Shown here in pieces: positions 6,633 through 58,462 of a stretch of DNA of 64,000 nucleotides. Every line of letters begins with the position of its first letter. The first letter of the stretch is position 1. The notes below the pieces were generated by a model. That model did not search any database. It was not told the origin of the DNA and saw nothing but the letters and a program-made list of their open reading frames with translations. The translations under genes and the position numbers were made by a program. The stretch is from positions 2,208,001 to 2,272,000 of the forward strand of contig OZ245046.1 of the NCBI GenBank assembly GCA_965224245.1, written 5' to 3'. The stretch comes from Candidatus Eiseniibacteriota bacterium. Its GTDB lineage: Bacteria > Eisenbacteria > RBG-16-71-46 > CAZAMP01.

Positions 6633-7561
6633 TGGAGCCCGATCCCGGTCCGATCGCGCGAGCGATCGAGAACCGGCGTGACGTCGTCCCGGAGGAAATG
6701 CCGGGTCAAGAGCCAGGCGCTGACGACCAGCCCCGTCTCGGCGGCGGCCCAGGCGATCGCCGCGTATCCGTCGTATCGATCGGCGCGGTCCAGGAGCCTC
6801 GACATGTCGGCCGGGATCGCCGACCGCTCGTACCCGGCATACGCGTCGTCCGCGACGTCCTTGTAGTAGATGGCGAGCCCGACACTGGCCGCGCTCGCGC
6901 CCAGTATCATCCAGTTCGTCAGCGACAGGCGGGCGCTCCCCACCGACGTGACGGGACCCGCGGGCTGAGCGGCGTCCACCGGACGCAGCGTGAACACGAC
7001 GTCTCCACCGCCCCGGAGCCGCTCGGCCGTGGCCGACTCGGCGTGGTATCCGTCCTTGCGGATGCGAACCCCTTCGCGGTCGCGCTCGCGCCAGCGCGTG
7101 ATGAGCGGCGTGTGCCCGATCACCCGCCCGTTCTTGACGATCTCGGCGTCCTGGGGGTCGGAGTCGAGTCGCACGAGGGTGCCCAGACGCTCCTCGACGA
7201 GCAGGGTATCGCCCGCCGCGACGTCGATCGTCCGCTCGGGCACCGGCTCGGGCTCGAACGCCATCGGCGGCATCGACCGGAACCAGACCCGATGCGGCCC
7301 CACCTCCAGCGGGCCCGACGTGATCGGCGTCAGGCCGAGGAAGCTCCCGTCCACGTAGACGTATGCACCCGAGGGCACGCTACGGAGGACGAGCACGCCC
7401 GATCCGTCGGCCGTCCCCTCGACCGCTCCACCCTGGTCCGGATCGGCGGCACTCGACGCACACGCCGGCGCCGCGAGCGCGCCCATGGCCAGCGCACACG
7501 CGATCACCGGCGTCCAGGCTCGGACGCGAGCGCGATCAGGAGTTCGACGATTCGTACGCAT
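6620..7561 (-). CDS. PEGA-domain membrane/outer-membrane protein
   Basis: Two PEGA-like repeats (SVPSGAYVYVDGSFLGLTP; SDPQDAEIVKNGRVIGHTP), hydrophobic helices, C-terminal GIGLQWRY. Confidence 0.8.
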   Translation of the reverse strand: MRTNRRTPDRARVRAWTPVIACALAMGALAAPACASSAADPDQGGAVEGTADGSGVLVLRSVPSGAYVYVDGSFLGLTPITSGPLEVGPHRVWFRSMPPMAFEPEPVPERTIDVAAGDTLLVEERLGTLVRLDSDPQDAEIVKNGRVIGHTPLITRWRERDREGVRIRKDGYHAESATAERLRGGGDVVFTLRPVDAAQPAGPVTSVGSARLSLTNWMILGASAASVGLAIYYKDVADDAYAGYERSAIPADMSRLLDRADRYDGYAAIAWAAAETGLVVSAWLLTRHFLRDDVTPVLDRSRDRTGIGLQWRY

Positions 7562-8702
7562 AGACGTGTCCCGCGTCGTCGACGGCGATCAGCACGTGTC
7601 CGGACACGAGCGCCGCCGTCCGAACCGGACGCTTCAGATCGACCGTGTGAATCACCCGGCGCGCCGACCGCGACACGATCTGGCACGTGGCCGTCATCGT
7701 GGTCACGATCACCGCATCGCCGGCCACCGCAGGCTTCGACCGGGAGACTCCGCGCAGCTGAACGCTCCAGGACAGCTCCCCGGTGTGCCGGTCCAGCACG
7801 TGGAGCCATCCGGCGGATCCGGTCACGAACACCTCGTCTCCGTCGATCACGACCGGCGCCCACACGTGCGTGTCGAGCTCCCGCCGCCAGTCGGCTGCGC
7901 CGGTGGCCACGTCGAGGGAGACGATCGTGCCGTCCAGCGACGGCGCGATGACCCGATCGCCGGCGAGCGTCGCCCCACCCCGGCTGCCGGATTCGAGAGG
8001 GACCTGCCACACGAGCGCGCCGTCCGCCGTGGCGTACGCGGCCACCGTGCTCGATTCGCCGGTCACGACGACCACGTCGTCGTTCGCGGCGAGCGGCGCG
8101 CCCCACCGGTCCTCGAGCTCCACCGACCACCGGGTCTCGCCGGTGTCCACGTCGAGCGCCATCAGGCCGTCGGTGCGATCGGTGACGTACAGCACCCCGC
8201 CGCGCACCACCGGTCCGCCGTACGGCACGAGGTCACGGCGCCACCAGGACTCGGCGCCGTCCTCGATCCCGAGCGCGAGCAGCCCGGGGTCGGGCAACGC
8301 GTGTCCCACGATCACCCGATCGTCGGCGACGATCGGCGCGGTCGAGGGCGCGCCCTTCAGCTTCTTCTTCCAGAACCCGCCCCCGTTGGCGAGATCGAGG
8401 TAGTGCACGCTCAGATCCGTCGAGGCGACGAGCACGCCGTCGCCGGCCAGACAGGCGTCGAAGTCGGGGCCGCGACCCGCTCGACGCTCCCACAGGAGGT
8501 ACAGCGGCGGCTCGAGGGACGTCGACCCGACGGCCCCCGTTCGCCTCGCGTCGCCCCCGACCCCCGGCCAGTCGGGCACGGTCGAGGGGGGCGTGCGAAG
8601 CGCGTTCGTGCCGCAGGACAGCCAGAGGCACGTCGCGGCCGGCAGCAGCATCGCGATCCACCGCGGGTGCCGCACGGGCGGCCTTCGACCGGGCGCACGC
8701 AT
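7536..8702 (-). CDS. PQQ-like beta-propeller lipoprotein (BamB-like)
   Basis: ATG overlaps the TGA of the upstream gene; lipobox-like WLSC; repeated ALDxxTGxxxW motifs. Confidence 0.85.
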   Translation of the reverse strand: MRAPGRRPPVRHPRWIAMLLPAATCLWLSCGTNALRTPPSTVPDWPGVGGDARRTGAVGSTSLEPPLYLLWERRAGRGPDFDACLAGDGVLVASTDLSVHYLDLANGGGFWKKKLKGAPSTAPIVADDRVIVGHALPDPGLLALGIEDGAESWWRRDLVPYGGPVVRGGVLYVTDRTDGLMALDVDTGETRWSVELEDRWGAPLAANDDVVVVTGESSTVAAYATADGALVWQVPLESGSRGGATLAGDRVIAPSLDGTIVSLDVATGAADWRRELDTHVWAPVVIDGDEVFVTGSAGWLHVLDRHTGELSWSVQLRGVSRSKPAVAGDAVIVTTMTATCQIVSRSARRVIHTVDLKRPVRTAALVSGHVLIAVDDAGHVYAYESSNS

Positions 8703-11530
8703 CAGTAGTTCCATCCGATGAAGAAGTCGCTCCGCGTCTTGGTCTCGAGCGACGTGAAGTCCGTGCGCCGGGCGAAGTCGAGCCGGAACACCAGGTAGCC
8801 CCCGAAGCTCATCCGGAGCGACGTTCCCACGCTGCCGAGCGGCGGCCAGGGCACGTCCTCGCCCGCGTTGAACAGCCAGCCCGCGTCGACGAAGAACGCG
8901 CCCTCGACGCCCGGGAACTCGACCGCGCCGAACGGGAACCCGATTACGAAGCCGTTGATGACCGGGAAGCGATACTCGTTGTTGACCAGGAGCGCCCGCG
9001 TTCCGAACAGCGACCGCCGCGGATAGCCGCGCAGGCTGTGGCTTCCGCCGAGCGTCCAGTAGCGGGGATCCGATCCGGTCGCGTACCGGCCCTGGATGCG
9101 CGTGGCCCACGTGGAGCGCTGCCGGACGCGATGATACCGACGCCAGTCGGCCAGGAGCTGCACGCTCTCGACGTCCGCCCGCGGGATGTCCACGGTGAGC
9201 CCCACCGACGCCTTGATCCGCGTTCCGTCGATCGGTCCGGTGGGCACCCAGAGCGAGTTGTCGTGCACCCACGAGAGGTAGTTCGTGGCGACCCACGCGC
9301 GCCGATCGACGCCGGTGGACTCGTTCTGCTTGTCCGAGTAGGCCAGCCCGATCGACGACTCCAGTCGCTCGAACTTCGAGAACGGGTAGTTGGCCAGGAG
9401 GCTCGCGCCGGCGCGCCGCTCGAAGAAGATGAAGTCCCGGTCGTCCCGGAAGTCGCCCGCGATGTGGTAGACGCTGTACCCGACGTTGAGGCGCTTTCGG
9501 AGGTTGAGATAGCTGAGACCGATGTTCATGCGCTTCAGGAAGTTCGAGCCTCGTTCGGAGGTGTTCCCGATCTGCGCGTACACGGCCTCGTCTCCCAGCA
9601 TGTCGGTGAACGCGAGCTGGGCGCCCTGCGCGTCGGTCAGGAGCGGATCGAACACGACGCCGCCCGCGGCGAAGTCCAGCGAGAAGCTCCGCCGGTAGCG
9701 CGCGGCCTCGGCCTTGCCGACGATCGCCGGATCGGTCCACCACCAGCCCGGCGCGACGTCGGCGTCTTCGAGGGCGACGACGTCGGTCGCGGTGCTCGAG
9801 TCGGCCCGGGCCTCCTCGAGCTCCAGCGAGTACACGTGATAGGTGCCCTTGGAGTAGCCGGTGAACAGAAGCGACTCGCCGTCGGCGGTGGGCCAGGGAT
9901 CCATGGCGCCGGTCAGGAACCGGGTCAGTCGACGGCCGTCGCCGTCGAGGTCCACCTCGTAGAGATCGGGAGAGCCCTCGCGCGTGGAGCTGAAAAACAC
10001 GCGTTCGCCGTCGGCCGAGCAACGGGGAGCGCTGTCGGTCCACGGTCCGCGTGTGAGGTAGCGTAGCTGGTGCGTCTCGACGTCGAGCACGAAGAGGTTC
10101 TTCGCGTCGTCCTCACCGTACTCGGTGCGATCGGACGAGAACACGACCGTGCGATCGTCCGACGCGAAGTCGGGGTCGGTGTCCTGATACACGTCGTGGG
10201 TCAGCCGCGAGAGCGTCTGCGTGTCGATCGCGAAGAGATAGAGATCCGAGTACGCGTCGTCCGAGAGCCCCTCGAACACGACGAGGCGCCCGTCGCGCGA
10301 CCAGGCCGGAGAGGCCAGCCCGAGCAGGTGATCGAACTGGTAGCGTCCGACGAGCCGGTGGGTCGTCAGGTCGAACACCATCAGCGCGTCGCGTTCGTGC
10401 CACTTCGAGACGAACGCCAGGCGCCCGTCCGCCGACACGTCCACCTTGCTGACGAAGGGATGGAGCGACTCGAACTGCGCATCGCGCTCGCCCTCGACGA
10501 CGATCTCGACGTCCTTCTCGGGTGCGTCGAAGGACGCGCTGTAGATGTTCGTGTAGCCCGAGCGCGGCGACACGAACAGGAGCCGTCGCTCGTCTCCCAG
10601 GATGCCCGCGGGCACCTCGATCGGCTTGAAGTTCACGCCCTTCTTGGTGAGCGCGCGCGCGGAGAGGGGGATCGACTGGCGCTCCTGGACGCGCGGGTAG
10701 AAGCTGCGCCGCTCGTGGAGATGCCAGCGCTCGGAGATCTCGGACACCGGATCGCCGGTCACCCACGCGAGCACGTCGGTGAACTCGGCGCTGATCCAGA
10801 GGTTGTCGTAGATGCGACTGATGACGTCCTCCCCGTACGTCTCGGTGAGGTAGCCCACCAGCCGCTGCCCGAGCTTGTAGAGCGTGAACGTGCCGTTGTA
10901 ACGCCAGAGCTGCTGGATCGGCGGGAGCCGGCCGTCGATCACGAAGTCGGCCAGGATCATCTCGCCCACGCCCGACCAGCGCTCGGACAGGTAGTCGGCC
11001 ATGCCCTCGGAGAACCACAGGGGGACGTGCGCGATGTTGTACCGGAAGTACTTCGTGTAGACGTTGCCGGTGAGCGCGAGCTGGAACACGTGGACGAGCT
11101 CGTGGTGGAGCGTGGTGCGGAACTGCGAGTACGAGCCGTTGAAGGGCATCAGCACCCGACCCTTCATGAACTCGGTGAGACCGGCCACGCCCTCGGGCAG
11201 GAAGAACGGCGTGACGTTGGTTTGCTGGAAGTCCTGGTGACTCGAGTACACGATCAGCGGAATGCGCCGCACGACCTCGGTGCCGAGCTGGTCGGCGAGG
11301 GCGGCATAGCTCTCCTCTGCCCACGCGAGCGTCCGGCGCGCGAGTTCCTCCTCGGCGGGGTAGAAGTAGAGATCGAAGTGGTCGGACTCGAGGACGTGCC
11401 ACTCGAAGTCGGTGTACTGGACCTTGTTCTTCCCGAACGCCGTGAACTGCGCGCCGGCGGTGGACACCAGCGCGCAGGCCGCGACACCCGTCGCGAGCAC
11501 GATCCAGCCGAGAGAACGGAAGGAGGCCAT
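8702..11530 (-). CDS. Omp85/BamA-family outer-membrane protein with N-terminal peptidase MA-like (HExxH) domain and PD40/TolB-like WD40 propeller
   Basis: Signal peptide then FGKNKVQY; HHELVH and PLWFSEG; PD40 repeats (SPAWSRDG, DPDFASDD, VFSSDR); SLRGYP Omp85 motif; ends FFIGWNY. Confidence 0.85.
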   Translation of the reverse strand: MASFRSLGWIVLATGVAACALVSTAGAQFTAFGKNKVQYTDFEWHVLESDHFDLYFYPAEEELARRTLAWAEESYAALADQLGTEVVRRIPLIVYSSHQDFQQTNVTPFFLPEGVAGLTEFMKGRVLMPFNGSYSQFRTTLHHELVHVFQLALTGNVYTKYFRYNIAHVPLWFSEGMADYLSERWSGVGEMILADFVIDGRLPPIQQLWRYNGTFTLYKLGQRLVGYLTETYGEDVISRIYDNLWISAEFTDVLAWVTGDPVSEISERWHLHERRSFYPRVQERQSIPLSARALTKKGVNFKPIEVPAGILGDERRLLFVSPRSGYTNIYSASFDAPEKDVEIVVEGERDAQFESLHPFVSKVDVSADGRLAFVSKWHERDALMVFDLTTHRLVGRYQFDHLLGLASPAWSRDGRLVVFEGLSDDAYSDLYLFAIDTQTLSRLTHDVYQDTDPDFASDDRTVVFSSDRTEYGEDDAKNLFVLDVETHQLRYLTRGPWTDSAPRCSADGERVFFSSTREGSPDLYEVDLDGDGRRLTRFLTGAMDPWPTADGESLLFTGYSKGTYHVYSLELEEARADSSTATDVVALEDADVAPGWWWTDPAIVGKAEAARYRRSFSLDFAAGGVVFDPLLTDAQGAQLAFTDMLGDEAVYAQIGNTSERGSNFLKRMNIGLSYLNLRKRLNVGYSVYHIAGDFRDDRDFIFFERRAGASLLANYPFSKFERLESSIGLAYSDKQNESTGVDRRAWVATNYLSWVHDNSLWVPTGPIDGTRIKASVGLTVDIPRADVESVQLLADWRRYHRVRQRSTWATRIQGRYATGSDPRYWTLGGSHSLRGYPRRSLFGTRALLVNNEYRFPVINGFVIGFPFGAVEFPGVEGAFFVDAGWLFNAGEDVPWPPLGSVGTSLRMSFGGYLVFRLDFARRTDFTSLETKTRSDFFIGWNY

Positions 11531-12015
11531 AAGCCGAGTTCTGTTAGGGTTTTTCATGACCCCGGCGATCATTTGTCTCGAAGCGCCGTTACCGACGCCC
11601 TCGTCGGACCCCGCGCGAGCGCACGAGATCCACTAGCGACCTACCCGAGGGTCCAGCGAGACGGGCCGCCTCTTCCCTCCTATTTGGTCTTGCTCCGGAT
11701 GGGGTTTGCCGAGCCGCCGAGGTCGCCCCCGACGCTGGTGAGCTCTTACCTCACCGTTTCACCCTCACCGGCCGACGGACCCCTCACGGAGCTCACGCCC
11801 CGAGCGGGCCCGGAGGGCCTCCTCGCACGAAGCTGGAGACACTCGACGCAACCTAGAATTACGTCACGGCTTAGGCGGTCTACTCTCTGTTGCACTTTCC
11901 GTGGGATCGCTCCCCCTGGCCGTTAGCCAGCATCCTGCCCTGTGGAGCTCGGACTTTCCTCACCGGCGTTCGGGCGCGAACGCCCGCCACCGGCGCGATC
12001 ACCCGGCCTCCTTCC
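11518..12015 (-). ncRNA. rnpB: RNase P RNA (type A, enlarged)
   Basis: GAGGAAAGTCCGAGCTC, GGAAAGTGCAACAGA, GGGTGAAACGGTGAGGTAAGAGC, GGCAAACCCC, GAGCAAG, ACAGAACTCGGCTTA; P1 formed by 12015-12005 and 11528-11518. Confidence 0.97.
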
Positions 12016-15554: not shown

Positions 15555-15900
15555 CGGTGCACCTCCTTCGAGTTGTCGGACCTCGGGCGGAGGCGCACGC
15601 GGCCGCCGCCGCGACGCTTCCGGTCGGGGTCGATGTCGAACCGAAAGGCGGGCCCTCTGCCGGAGTGCCCGTCGAATGGGAGATTCAAGCATCTCGGCGG
15701 GTCTCCGGCGATGATGCATCGGCATCATGAGGGACCGTGCCCACCGGTCGTGGGATCAAGCGCCCGCCGGGGTCCATCGGGGCGGTCACCGCTTCCGGGG
15801 CTGCGACGGTCGTGCGTCCGGGGTAGACTCGCGCGGTCGTGCCACTGCTTCCCGCCGCTCGGCGCGATGCCGACGGCGCCGCTCGAGAGGACGATTTCGG

Positions 15901-17016
15901 GTGATTGCGTCACGTCTTGGGCCGCGCCTCGGCCCGCTGGTCGCCGGTGTGGCCGTCCTCACCTGCTCCTGCTCCCACGCCCCGCCGGCGACATCGGACG
16001 TCGAGCCCGGCGCCATCGAGGGCGAAGCCGCCGCACGCCTCACGGACGCGCACTCCACCGGCGAGCACGGCCCCGCCCCTCGCGATACGACCGCGTCCGG
16101 CACGTTCGTGTTCGCGGCGTTCGAGGACATGGCGTGGTCACTCCGCGTGGCCGATCGCCACGGCGAGGAGGTCACGCGGATTCCCTTCGGCGGCGACGAG
16201 ATCCTCCTGGTCGGCGTGAGCGACGACGGTCACATCCTCTACTCCGACACCGCGCGATCGAACCTCGTGGCGATCGACGACTCCGGTCGCGTTCACTCGG
16301 AGTGGACCGCCGACGAGCTCGCCCGTCGGCTCGGATACCGCTGGGGCTACTCCGGCGACCCGGGGGCCGATCGCGCGGATCGGCTGACGCCGATGCGCGC
16401 ATTCCTGCACCGGGACGGCCGGCTCGAGCTGCTCGTGAAGTGCCGGATCCCCGAGCGCGCCACGACCCGTGACGGGGCGGAGTCGGAGACGTACCGCTAC
16501 GACACGATCCTCGTCCACTGGGACGCCGGCGGGCGCGAGCGGTGGCGATCGCCCGGCGGACGGATCGTGGACTTCGCGCCGTCGCCCGGCGGCGGCACGA
16601 TCCTCGCCTTCGACGTCGGTGTCCTCGAGCTCGACGACGACTCCCGACTCGTGCGCCAGGTGTCTCATCCCGCCGGCATCCGGACCATCTCGGTGTCGGT
16701 CGACGACGACGGTCGGCTCCTGGCCTGCCTCGCGATCCCCGACGGGGCTCCCGGCTTCGACGAGGCCCACGTGAGCCCGGGCAAGCCCGGCCGGATCGCC
16801 CGCGTGGGCGAGCTCGACTGGAACGGGCGATGGACGTGGTCCTTCCCGCATCCGTGCCCCGAGAGCATCCAGTCGATCCCGGGGGATCGGCTCCTGGTGG
16901 GCGGGGGCTGAAGCGAGACCGCGGCCGAGTTCGGTCGCGACGGGACGCGGGTCCGGGACTTCGACGACGCCACCGGCGGCATCGTGTTCCGGGCGCCAGT
17001 CCCGCCGGTGCGGTGA
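15901..17016 (+). CDS. Beta-propeller lipoprotein, candidate selenoprotein (TGA 16909-16911 read as Sec; otherwise ends at 16911)
   Basis: GTG start, lipobox-like VLTCSC; blade repeats continue in frame after the TGA (SETAAEFGRDGTRVRDF) to a second TGA at 17014-17016; SECIS-like hairpin. Confidence 0.65.
16921..16938 (+). promoter_or_regulatory. Putative bacterial SECIS hairpin
   Basis: GCGGCCG-AGTT-CGGTCGC: 7-bp stem, 4-nt loop with G at position 2 followed by U, 16 nt between the UGA and the loop. Confidence 0.55.
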
Positions 17017-17170
17017 GGCCGTTGCGGTCGGTCCGTTCGGGACGGGCGCCGACCGGTCCGACGGCCAGCCGCGTCTCCGGAACGAAGCCCGAGGGGTGAC
17101 GCTCGAGCCTCCTCCAGGTCGTGTCCCACGAAACCTGACGGTGCGACCTCCCCCTGATAAGATCCCCGGC

Positions 17171-17767
17171 ATGGACGATCAACGCCCACGGTCCGACGAT
17201 CCCGCGCTCGACGCCACGCAGCTCCTCGTGCGCATCGGAGACGGAGACACGGCTGCGATCGACGATCTCCTGCCTCTCGTCTACGATCAGCTCCGCGCGA
17301 TCGCGGCCCGCTCGTTTCGCGGTCAGCCGGCCGAGCACACGCTCCAGCCAACCGCGCTCGTCCACGAGGCGTTCCTGAAGATGATCCGGAACCCCGACGC
17401 GCAGTGGAAGAACAGCGGTCACTTCTTCGCGGTGGCGGCCACCGCCATGCGGCAGATCCTGACCGACCATGCGCGCGGCAAAGCCCGCGCCAAGCGCGGC
17501 GGTGACGCGGAGCACGTCTCGCTGGGTCAGGTCGAGTCGCCGTCGGGCAACGAGCGCCTCGACATCCTGGACCTCGAGCGGGCACTGACCCGACTGGCCT
17601 CGTTCGACCCCCGACAGGCCCGGATCATCGAGCTCTGGTTCTTCGCCGGGCAGACCGTCGAGGAGATCGCCGGCATCCTCCAGGTGTCGAGCCGCACGAT
17701 CCGCCGCGACTGGATGCACGCCCGTGCGTGGCTGAACCGCGAGCTCGCTGGAACCGGACCTGCATGA
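17171..17767 (+). CDS. ECF sigma factor, TIGR02999/ECF43-like (kinase-associated)
   Basis: LLPLVYDQLRAIA, HTLQPTALVHEAFLK, AMRQILTDHAR..KRGG, RDWMHARAWL. Confidence 0.92.
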   Translation: MDDQRPRSDDPALDATQLLVRIGDGDTAAIDDLLPLVYDQLRAIAARSFRGQPAEHTLQPTALVHEAFLKMIRNPDAQWKNSGHFFAVAATAMRQILTDHARGKARAKRGGDAEHVSLGQVESPSGNERLDILDLERALTRLASFDPRQARIIELWFFAGQTVEEIAGILQVSSRTIRRDWMHARAWLNRELAGTGPA

Positions 17768-20376
17768 GCGCCGACGAACGCTTCGCCGAGGTCAAGGCGA
17801 TCTTCGATGCCGCGCTCGATCTTCCGGCCTCCGAGCGCACGGCGTTCCTGCGTGAGCGGTGCGGAGCCGACGACGCGCTCCGCCGCGACGTCGAGTCGCT
17901 GCTCGCGTTCGAGGAATCGGGCGACGGGTTCCTCAAGGACGCGCACCGCGGCGCGGGCCCCGCGATGCTGGCCGATGAGATGGCCATCGCATCCGATGCC
18001 AGCATCCCCGATCGGATCGCCCAGTACCGGATCCTGCGCAAGATCGGCGAGGGCGGGATGGGCGTGGTCTACGAGGCCGAGCAGGAGAGCCCGCGACGGC
18101 GCGTCGCGCTCAAGGTGATCCGCTCGGCGTTCCTCACCGACGAGGTCGTCAAGCGCTTTCGCCACGAGGTGCAGCTGCTCGGACAGCTCGACCACGCCGG
18201 CGTGGCCCACATCTACGAGGCGGGCACGGCCACCATTCGGGACAGCTCGTGGCCGTTCTTCGCGATGGAGCTCGTGGACGGTCGCCCCCTCGACCACCAC
18301 GCGACCTCGGTCGGTCTCTCGGTCGAGGAGCGGCTGGAGCTCCTGGCCCGCGTGGCCGATGCCGTCCACCACGCTCACGCGAAGGGCATCGTGCACCGCG
18401 ATCTGAAGCCCGCCAACGTGCTCGTGAAGTCGGTGCGAAGCGACGAGACCACCTCGCCCACCGGAGAGCCGGATCGGATCGGTCAGCCCAAGGTCCTCGA
18501 CTTCGGCGTGGCCAGGGCCACCGACGCCGACATCCAGATCACCACCGTGCAGACACACGCCGGGCAGATCGTGGGGACCCTCGCCTACATGAGCCCCGAG
18601 CAGGTCGAGGGCCGGCGGGACATCGACCGGCGATGCGACGTGTACTCCCTCGGCGTGATCCTGTACGAGCTGCTGGCGGGTCGACGGCCGTTCGACCTGA
18701 CGGGGCGGCCGGTGGCCGAGGCGGCCCGGATGATCGTCGACGACGATCCGACCTCGCTCGGCGACGACGTGCCATCGCTTCGCGGAGACGTGGCCACCAT
18801 CGTGGCCAAGGCGATGGAGAAGGACCGCGCGCGCCGCTACGACTCGACGGCCGAACTCGCCGAGGACATCCGCCGCTTCCTGCGCTCCGAGCCGATCAGC
18901 GCCCGCCCCGCGAGCCGCTCGTATCGCGTACGGCGCTTCGTCCGGCGGAACCGTCCGCTGGTGGCCGGACTCGCTGCCGCGTTCGTGGCGCTCGCCGCGG
19001 GGCTCGTGGCCACGACGGTACTCCTGTTGAAGACGCGCGAGGAGCGGGACGCGAAGGTCGCGGCGCTCGAACGCTCGGACGCGGTGACCGAGTTCCTGTC
19101 GGACATGCTGCTCGCGGCGGACCCCGGCCTCGAGGGCCGTGACGTGACCGTCCTCGAAGTGCTCGACCAGGCGAGCGCGGACGTCGGCGTGCAGTTCGCG
19201 GACCGGCCCGTTCTGGAGTCGGATCTCCGCGGCGTGATCGGCAACACCTACAACTCCCTCGGCGAGTACGCCCGGGCCGACTCGCACCTGACGGTCGCGC
19301 TCGCGCTCGCCACCGAGCACATGAGCCCCGACGACCCGCGCATCTACGAGATCAGCTCGATCCTGGGGGCGGTACGGTACTTCCAAGGGGATTACGAGTC
19401 GGCCCTCGAGTACTTCAACCACCATCTGGACGGATACGAGCGGGGCGCCCTGGAGAGGGACGGGTCCTACTCGGTCACCGTGCAGAACGTCGCGTTCCTG
19501 ACCATGAGCCTCGGGCACCTGGACGACGCGCGCGAGCTGTTTCAGACGGCTCTCGACTACTCCACCGAGCACGACGGTCCGGACGCCGAGGCGACCATCA
19601 CCATCGGCGCGAATCTCGCGATGCTCGAGCATCGCGCGCGGCGCTACGACGAGGCCGAGCGAATCTATCTCGACGCCATCGAGCGCTCGCGCCGGGTGCG
19701 CGGAAACGACCACCCCGAGACGCTTCTGCTGGTGGCCAACCTCGCGTCGCTGTACGGGCGCGTCGGACGGGAGGCCGAGGCGCTCCCGCTGCTCCAGGAG
19801 ACGTTGACCCAGCAGGAGTCGGTGTTCGGCCCCTCGCATTCGAAGACCCTGATCACGCTCGGCAACCTGGCCCAGTCGCTGGCCCGGGTCGGACGGACCG
19901 ACGAGGCGCGCACGCTCGTCGACGACGGGCTCGCGCGCTCGATCGAGGCCTATGGCGAGGGTGAACGCAGCACGCTCTTGATGACGGCCGCCAAGGCCGG
20001 CGTGCTGGATGCGTCGGGCGACCACGAGGGGGCGATCGCGCTCCTCGTCCCGAACCTCGCCGCGGTGCGAGCAACGATGGGCGACGGGTCGGACGCCGCC
20101 CGCCGCGACTGGTTCTCGATCCTGGCCGCCTATCGCGCGCTGGGCCGCGCCGACGACATCATCCGGGTGAGCCGGGAGTACGCCGACGCGATGGCGGCCG
20201 AGTTCGGCGAGGCGCACCCTCGAACGGTGGAGGCCCGGGTCACGCTCGCCCGCGCCTACCGCGACGACGATCGGCCCGAGCTCGCCGAGCGTGAGCTCGC
20301 CACGGCCCGGGCACAGGTCGGTGAGGCCACCGTCGACTCGGTGAACCGAGCGCTCGACGAGCGCCGCCACCGCTGA
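17764..20376 (+). CDS. Membrane Ser/Thr protein kinase with C-terminal TPR repeats
   Basis: IGEGGMGVVY, VALKVI, HRDLKPANV, DFGVA, GTLAYMSPEQ; TM helix; GxDHPxTL-type TPRs; ATGA overlap with the ECF gene. Confidence 0.95.
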   Translation: MSADERFAEVKAIFDAALDLPASERTAFLRERCGADDALRRDVESLLAFEESGDGFLKDAHRGAGPAMLADEMAIASDASIPDRIAQYRILRKIGEGGMGVVYEAEQESPRRRVALKVIRSAFLTDEVVKRFRHEVQLLGQLDHAGVAHIYEAGTATIRDSSWPFFAMELVDGRPLDHHATSVGLSVEERLELLARVADAVHHAHAKGIVHRDLKPANVLVKSVRSDETTSPTGEPDRIGQPKVLDFGVARATDADIQITTVQTHAGQIVGTLAYMSPEQVEGRRDIDRRCDVYSLGVILYELLAGRRPFDLTGRPVAEAARMIVDDDPTSLGDDVPSLRGDVATIVAKAMEKDRARRYDSTAELAEDIRRFLRSEPISARPASRSYRVRRFVRRNRPLVAGLAAAFVALAAGLVATTVLLLKTREERDAKVAALERSDAVTEFLSDMLLAADPGLEGRDVTVLEVLDQASADVGVQFADRPVLESDLRGVIGNTYNSLGEYARADSHLTVALALATEHMSPDDPRIYEISSILGAVRYFQGDYESALEYFNHHLDGYERGALERDGSYSVTVQNVAFLTMSLGHLDDARELFQTALDYSTEHDGPDAEATITIGANLAMLEHRARRYDEAERIYLDAIERSRRVRGNDHPETLLLVANLASLYGRVGREAEALPLLQETLTQQESVFGPSHSKTLITLGNLAQSLARVGRTDEARTLVDDGLARSIEAYGEGERSTLLMTAAKAGVLDASGDHEGAIALLVPNLAAVRATMGDGSDAARRDWFSILAAYRALGRADDIIRVSREYADAMAAEFGEAHPRTVEARVTLARAYRDDDRPELAERELATARAQVGEATVDSVNRALDERRHR

Positions 20377-58364: not shown

Positions 58365-58462
58365 TGGCGGGAACGTGTGGGAATCGAACCCACCTCGGAC
58401 GGGATTAGCGCCCGACAGAAGGATTTGAAGTCCTCGGAGTTCACCAGAACTCGCCCGCTCCC
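58365..58462 (-). tRNA. selC: tRNA-Sec (UCA)
   Basis: 98 nt; extended acceptor stem, 6-bp D stem with 4-nt loop (GAGTTC-TGGT-GAACTC), anticodon loop CTTCAAA, long variable arm, G discriminator plus CCA. Confidence 0.95.

Follow-up and report, generated by a model that had tools for sequence, protein, structure and literature searches.

Here we describe a gene at positions 15901-17016 (forward strand) of a 64,000-nucleotide stretch of DNA from a Candidatus Eiseniibacteriota bacterium (contig OZ245046.1, positions 2,208,001 to 2,272,000; referred to as the window), which, as judged from sequence comparison, very probably encodes a genuine selenoprotein from a family that has not been catalogued, its apparent stop codon being read as selenocysteine (Sec). 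The region would constitute one gene encoding a 371-residue exported, possibly lipid-anchored, six-bladed β-propeller. Following the established bacterial pathway, SelB with Sec-tRNA(Sec) would bind a hairpin at 16920-16939 inside the coding sequence, Sec would be delivered to the ribosome paused at the UGA at 16909, and translation would proceed to the real stop at 17014. We infer the actual insertion of Sec, the export of the protein and a role of its selenol as a catalytic or ligand centre.

The in-frame UGA, its hairpin and the conserved tail

The gene begins with a GTG codon at 15901, 9 nt behind a Shine-Dalgarno-like GAGAGGA (15885-15891) recognized by eye. The first open reading frame (ORF) from this start ends with ...IPGDRLLVGGG at TGA 16909-16911, and a public gene call (P0002, 336 aa) has the same start and likewise ends at the Sec codon. 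In frame, the sequence continues for 34 codons (16912-17013; SETAAEFGRDGTRVRDFDDATGGIVFRAPVPPVR) up to TGA 17014-17016, giving a complete gene of 371 codons plus the terminal TGA in which the in-frame UGA, as the presumed selenocysteine (U337), is codon 337. An original prediction, made from the window sequence by itself, had described an ORF halted in the middle of a blade and resumed for 34 codons, and this description is borne out by the sequence; its other statements on the sequence, including the match of the continuation to the blade pattern of the protein, all hold as well. The first 24 codons (15901-15972) encode a putative signal peptide, identified by inspection, with a possible lipobox (..AGVAVLTCSC; Cys22 and Cys24). 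The segment L-T-C-S-C would fit the lipobox pattern if Cys24 is the lipidated residue, and the label lipoprotein thus comes from inspection; the N-termini of relatives also look signal-peptide-like when inspected.

Within the phylum, 61 related genomes were searched with the read-through protein and 206 phylum genomes with a profile. The sole close relative resides in a genome of the same family and another genus (G001), as an uninterrupted ORF of 347 codons (protein P0004) with an identity of 32% in pairwise alignment and 36% over the part matched in the genome search. This homologue reads ...HGCAHSVHVLPDGNTLVGGG-C-GEILTEYTPDGEIVREHDGISGVVFYRPAGPSR-stop, with TGC at the UGA position, and its C-terminus aligns with the second TGA of the window, which thereby falls on the TAG stop of the G001 gene (...PAGPSR-stop versus ...PVPPVR-stop). 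Further members were sought with a degenerate DNA pattern that was back-translated from the motif around the site, the third base of the site codon being left free; because it demands C-P after His-x, the pattern is blind to forms such as the H-G-C-A of G001. It matched one locus in genome contigs, from a Planctomycetales metagenome-assembled genome (MAG), and three metagenome contigs, all four with TGA at the site and all four with an in-frame tail G-[LS]-x-A-V-E-F-D-R-x-G-x-x-x-R... of 33-39 codons behind it. Profile searches of 401 Planctomycetota genomes and of the orders to which the positive genomes belong (3, 42 and 20 genomes) revealed close copies in four Planctomycetota genomes only, namely G206 (two), G266 (seven), G436 (one) and G525 (one). 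TGA occupies the site in each of the 12 copies counted across four Planctomycetota genomes, two of which contain frameshifts. Together with the three metagenome contigs there are 15 copies besides that of the window with TGA at the aligned codon, 13 of them with intact frames, and the tally at the DNA level, window included, is 16 TGA copies (14 intact) against one TGC. Across the family, the tail keeps its frame and shows the common pattern G-x-x-A-V-E-F-D-R-x-G..., and it is conserved to the degree of the body, also past the hairpin (x-G-x-x-V-R-[ED]-[FY] ... G-x-[IV]-V). Homologues with TGA or Cys at this position and with conserved downstream sequence, which the original prediction had named as the support to look for, thus exist. 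The seven copies of G266, a 2.3-Mb Planctomycetota MAG, form two tandem arrays and one single gene with TGA at the site in all (L048, G266:C198:2500-8500; L055, G266:C3:6064-9858; L047, G266:C83), and two copies in the array of four genes are frameshifted, possibly by pseudogene decay or by an assembly error.

At the protein level, a public search with the window protein returned its own truncated call as the sole match. When 1.84 billion representative proteins were searched with a profile, 161 matches were obtained at E <= 0.001, with only the truncated call of the window and the G001 protein below 1e-10; several short proteins in this search match up to profile position 344-345 and then end. 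Sixteen of 150 listed proteins were examined, picked partly for ending near the Sec site, and nine of them end exactly one residue before it; all nine have the Cys of an H-x-C-P motif 18 residues earlier, and eight have the His itself. Three proteins from a later search (P0159, P0160 and P0161) also end at the residue before the Sec site, P0159 being the gene call for locus L012, where the DNA shows TGA. In total, 12 public gene calls cut right before the site were seen, and for the three of these whose DNA was viewed the stop is TGA in each case. Three further candidates (G083, G035 and G628) turned out to be generic propellers and not family members, and 40 weaker Planctomycetota matches without stops (E 1e-19 to 1e-10), not viewed singly, mostly end ahead of the Sec site or do not contain the motif. 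In the more distant relatives P0162, P0163 and G628, the Sec position is occupied by Tyr or Ser and H-x-C-P is missing.

Following the UGA after 8 nt, the window contains a hairpin of the selenocysteine insertion sequence (SECIS) type (CGCGGCCG/CGGUCGCG; 16920-16939), in which 16920-16927 pairs with 16932-16939 to form a stem of 8 bp, including one G-U. The apical loop AGUU (16928-16931) is located 16 nt past the UGA and has a G at position 2, followed by U; the minimum free energy (MFE) of the 37 nt after the UGA is -16.1 kcal/mol. The hairpin lies inside the coding sequence, across the codons for A-A-E-F-G-R. The model of the bacterial SECIS element comprises a loop of 3-9 nt, an upper stem of 4-16 bp, a G in the first two loop positions, a distance of 16-37 nt from the UGA and an MFE <= -7.5 kcal/mol (PMC13188914, section 5, Fig. 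2 legend). The window hairpin conforms to every one of these constraints, and both the hairpin with its loop and 16-nt spacing and the fit to the bacterial consensus had been correctly predicted. All TGA copies possess the same hairpin in the same register, with a stem of 6-8 bp and 16 nt past the UGA; in the other copies the UGA is followed after 9-10 nt by (G)CGGUCG/CGACCG(C) with the loop AGUU, or AGAU in two copies, and energies computed for 12 copies range from -9.9 to -20.9 kcal/mol. In the G001 gene with Cys, the corresponding stretch of DNA forms no such hairpin, and this absence is a more telling point than covariation. In an alignment of 12 DNA sequences, 86.5% of the pairing cells are occupied by pairs, as opposed to 21-57% when the partner is slid by 1-3 columns. 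Compared to the other copies, the window has C-G instead of U-A in one pair and G-U instead of G-C in the neighbouring pair, and these two changes go along with Ala in place of Val and Gly in place of Asp at the protein level. A search of 16880-17020 against Rfam gave zero families at E <= 10.

The machinery for Sec is present. A tRNA-Sec gene with the anticodon TCA at 58365-58462 on the reverse strand, already pointed out in the original prediction, was recovered with ARAGORN and also as a match to Rfam RF01852, which at 71.9 bits exceeds the gathering score of 47. The selA, selB and selD genes, for which a check of the genome had been suggested, are all three present: SelA scores 427.6 bits, a SelB-type protein is indicated by a wing-3 domain (59.5 bits) within an open frame of 671 aa, and SelD scores 378.4 bits. 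Thus, the organism decodes UGA as Sec. The selD gene has one in-frame TGA of its own (L008 1529-1531; G000:C1, about 4218212), in the context ..SGAG-U-ASKLG.. and followed after 12 nt by a hairpin, GGGCCAGG-GGU-CCUGGCCC; SelD itself is therefore a selenoprotein here. All five other genomes (G001, G206, G266, G436 and G525) have SelA and a tRNA-Sec match of at least 66 bits.

Structural modeling by AlphaFold gave a mean predicted local distance difference test (pLDDT) score of 82.4 and a predicted template modelling (pTM) score of 0.76 with an alignment of 21 sequences, and a pLDDT of 67 with one of two sequences. The model has a helix at residues 11-23 and disorder over 24-59, followed by three N-terminal strands (68-75, 78-84 and 90-95), by five four-stranded blades and by a last strand at 361-364; from this strand order we read the model as a six-bladed propeller with C-terminal 'velcro' strand closure. 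The C-terminal 34 codons account for three strands (341-345, 350-354 and 361-364), of which the first two finish the final blade and the third closes the propeller, with pLDDT values of 93, 94, 93 and 88 for the 10-residue blocks over 331-370. The expectation that the last 34 residues are needed to complete the propeller is in agreement with these three confident strands, and in a product ending with GGG, according to the model, the closure and half of the last blade would be missing. The strand order places Sec337 in a predicted G-G-G-U turn that links strands 330-335 and 341-345, the second and third of the last blade; the preceding H-x-C-P motif and a conserved Gln of the innermost strand would share one face with this turn.

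Chance signals and other readings of the TGA codon

A number of observations weigh against a selenoprotein gene at this locus or limit the support for it. The 76-nt fold has a z score of -0.04, with 86 of 200 dinucleotide shuffles at least as stable. The G+C-rich genome that contains the window (6.9 Mb in 27 contigs) was also scanned for chance cases among TGA-ended stop-to-stop frames with a length of 250 codons or more: of 8095 such frames, 5628 extend for at least 30 codons and 824 are followed by a SECIS-like hairpin under a loose rule, extension and hairpin occurring together in 572 (7%). The combination of UGA, extension and hairpin in the window alone is within chance; therefore, the case rests on the comparison with other sequences. 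In this comparison, the covariation of the stem is thin, as double changes occur in two pairs only and the observed score is reached by 28 of 500 shuffles, and the stem coincides with the conserved peptide A-V-E-F-D-R, the support for the hairpin thus being mainly conservation. For both reasons, we count the hairpin as conserved and correctly placed and not as proven by covariation. The Cys form of the gene was found a single time, and a single Cys form is unusual for selenoprotein families. Moreover, two Logan-derived database proteins continue past the site, with Trp in P0013 and Gly in P0027 as judged from the protein sequences.

In a rival reading, the TGA is a real stop, the gene encoding a 336-residue truncated functional form or being a nonsense pseudogene with non-coding DNA downstream. 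Public gene calling treats the codon in this way (P0002), and an extension of 34 codons together with a hairpin is common after TGA in this genome, as the above scan revealed. We nevertheless regard a real stop as extremely unlikely, since TGA occurs at the exact codon in the 15 other copies, which stem from five other sources, with the tail conserved at the protein level, and since the Cys homologue runs uninterrupted to the same C-terminus. In addition, the truncated product would be without two strands of the last blade and without the closing strand, and there is no terminator-like site within 15600-17300. That the TGA stems from a TGC or TGG codon, each of them one base away, through a mistake in sequencing or assembly is a practically negligible explanation: contigs from four sequencing runs, one from each, show zero differences over 15901-17100, although these runs are not independent, as all come from one sample that is probably the source, and TGA is found at the site in 15 other copies from other assemblies.

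Read-through of the UGA without Sec, with Trp, Gly or Cys being inserted by near-cognate decoding or under a reassigned code, finds some support in P0013 and P0027 and is in our view very unlikely. The window gene and most of its relatives use TGA as their ordinary end stop, and TGA is therefore not reassigned in these genomes; furthermore, Sec machinery is present in all genomes with the TGA form, and the SECIS-type hairpin accompanies every TGA copy and not the Cys copy. The residues of P0013 and P0027 may themselves be readings of TGA by gene callers, because Trp and Gly are the meanings of TGA under NCBI translation tables 4 and 25, and because each of the two proteins derives from a single short contig. 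Trp, Arg or Gly at the site, or homologues ending there with TAA or TAG, had been put forward in the original prediction as counter-evidence: all site codons viewed in DNA are TGA or TGC, while P0013 and P0027 stand as protein-level cases with Trp and Gly.

Partner residues, gene surroundings and possible function

Given a selenoprotein, the question of its function turns on the residues that accompany Sec, which is the only reactive residue constant in every DNA-verified member (as Cys in G001). In the window, the Cys of the H-x-C-P motif is Cys319 (codon 16855-16857), 18 residues ahead of Sec, and its role as a possible partner had been proposed from the sequence. This Cys is present in 17 of 21 aligned members, and in 8 of the 14 intact genes verified in DNA. 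Of the six intact genes without it, two place a Cys immediately ahead of Sec (F-C-U and C-G-A-C-U) and four have no nearby Cys, so that a partner role of this Cys could not be obligatory. Two findings speak against a redox function: the presumed partner is missing in 6 of 14 intact genes, and the loci examined show neither a conserved redox partner gene nearby nor any partner gene common to them all.

Our best guess, which we hold tentatively, is that the protein functions as an extracytoplasmic or exported redox selenoenzyme. In the clade of the window, the selenol could form a selenenylsulfide with Cys319, and the distribution of Cys in the family would be in keeping with a selenol whose resolving thiol is movable or external; a metal site or a nucleophile would match this distribution equally well. 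The next guess after a redox centre is a metal or metalloid site composed of His, Cys and Sec. Accordingly, a genuine selenoprotein in which Sec is such a ligand (His-Cys-Sec; for Cu, Hg, As or similar) or a group-transfer nucleophile as in arylsulfate sulfotransferase (ASST), instead of a selenenylsulfide redox centre, appears possible, if somewhat doubtful. This possibility draws on the four intact genes that have no Cys nearby, on the conserved His two residues before the upstream Cys, on the ASST-type character of the nearest folds and weak family matches (Cpz4 9kf6, E. coli ASST, and PF05935 in 8 of 13 members) and on the existence of metal-binding selenoproteins in the catalogue (PMC13188914). 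On the other side, the Cys directly before Sec in two of the six copies that lack the upstream Cys resembles a movable resolving cysteine, and most uncharacterized selenoproteins are thought to be redox proteins (review text, PMC13188914). Overall, we infer that an exported propeller resembling ASST bears a selenol with a redox or metal-binding role.

Downstream of the selenoprotein gene and on the same strand follow a gene for an extracytoplasmic function (ECF) sigma factor (17171-17767; Pfam PF07638, 1.4e-56) and one for a Ser/Thr kinase with tetratricopeptide repeats (TPR; 17728-20376; Pkinase, 6.5e-42, plus TPR families). The frames of these two genes share 40 nt (17728-17767), which suggests translational coupling of the pair. 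The position of the pair directly downstream is as originally predicted, but the arrangement is absent from every homologous locus examined. In G001, the gene is located between genes for an outer-membrane-type protein and an M50-like peptidase, both named by reading the sequences. At the Planctomycetales locus L011, the next gene (6995-7957) encodes a secreted HEAT-repeat protein, its start overlapping the stop (ATGA), and two relatives of about 550 aa, P0158 (from precomputed Pfam matches) and P0008 (from reading the sequence), appear to fuse HEAT repeats to a propeller with the repeat type of the Sec-propeller. The HEAT-repeat neighbour and these fusions hint that the HEAT part and the propeller work together. 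In G206 and G266, the Sec-propeller genes lie between carboxyltransferase and enoyl-CoA hydratase genes, followed in G206 by a biotin carboxylase gene (L052, G206:C9, 3-3872; L048, 350-5999), and an HMGL-like gene adjoins the G436 locus (L058, G436:C16, 58-2346). Judged from these sequences, the surroundings in G206 and G266 look like a cluster for leucine/isovalerate catabolism; the two contexts are not independent, as they belong to one order. Elsewhere in the window, a bacterial class A RNase P RNA is encoded at 11515-12014 on the reverse strand (Rfam RF00010, 245.6 bits).

Relation to known propellers and selenoproteins

In a Foldseek search the model matched propellers in general, the best hit being the arylsulfate-sulfotransferase-type protein Cpz4 (9kf6; E 1.3e-10, template modelling score (TM) 0.51), with E. 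coli ASST at about 4e-8. The latter enzyme uses a catalytic histidine as nucleophile together with sulfate-binding residues. The family profile matches 3no2 at E 7.9e-20, and this match stops before the last, Sec-bearing blade. For the window protein itself, Pfam gave zero matches at E <= 1 except for two chance-level domains of unknown function. Among 13 members, weak Pfam matches were obtained to ASST (PF05935) in eight, to Mala_s_1-like in six and to PQQ_2 in four; the best E value for PF05935 is 1.1e-9, and the gathering score was not reached (14.2 bits for P0134 against a cut-off of 24.2). The same 13 members returned 0 relevant families in NCBIfam release 20 at E <= 0.1, and the language-model neighbours of P0004, the natural Cys homologue, belong to ASST/PQQ-like clusters. 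The protein shares with the small ASST-like, PQQ_2 and Mala_s_1-like propellers (PF05935, PF13360 and PF22701) the blade repeat L-x-N-G-N-x-L-V ... V-x-E-x-D-x-x-G-K-x-V-W, a size of about 250-350 residues and a signal peptide; a solved example is 3no2, BACCAC_01654 of Bacteroides caccae, whose function is unknown. In contrast to these propellers, it has no family-level Pfam match, and its likeness to ASST is at the level of the fold only (TM about 0.5).

Bacterial selenoprotein catalogues consist mostly of thioredoxin-fold and metal-cofactor enzymes. With bacterial selenoprotein genes of the E. coli fdhF type (model as described in PMC13188914), the window gene has in common an in-frame UGA, a stem-loop within the ORF just downstream, the Sec machinery and a Cys homologue. 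Unlike the catalogued bacterial selenoproteins, its product is a β-propeller with Sec near the C-terminus in a G-G-G-U turn and without UxxC or CxxU, and, unlike known selenoprotein families, this one is dominated by Sec, with 15 TGA copies to one Cys copy in the DNA viewed. Table 1 of a 2026 review lists 119 prokaryotic selenoprotein families and has no propeller, ASST or PQQ entry (PMC13188914), and the word 'propeller' occurs 0 times in the main texts of this review and of the papers on BSepDB and deep-Sep (PMC13188914, PMC13326102 and PMC12013277). Full-text literature searches combining selenoprotein with β-propeller or with Planctomycetota brought up nothing relevant. Recoding of this kind is textbook knowledge, and the protein family has no entry in the sources covered, namely the review table and NCBIfam.

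It might be speculated, at a clearly lower level of confidence than for the functions considered above, that the family represents an extracytoplasmic selenoenzyme class that is new and does not have the thioredoxin fold, with the selenol as the sole invariant reactive group on the face of the propeller, and that the protein acts in this genome as a redox or ligand sensor that feeds the adjacent ECF sigma factor and Ser/Thr kinase pair; we consider this unlikely. The near-universal use of Sec over Cys in the members seen suggests a chemistry in which selenium is hard to replace, and the propeller provides a new scaffold for asking why selenium is used. As public gene calls are cut at the Sec codon, the proteins are recorded without the two strands of the last blade, the closing strand and the probable active residue. 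A re-annotation that takes TGA into account would mend these truncated calls and would probably enlarge the family.

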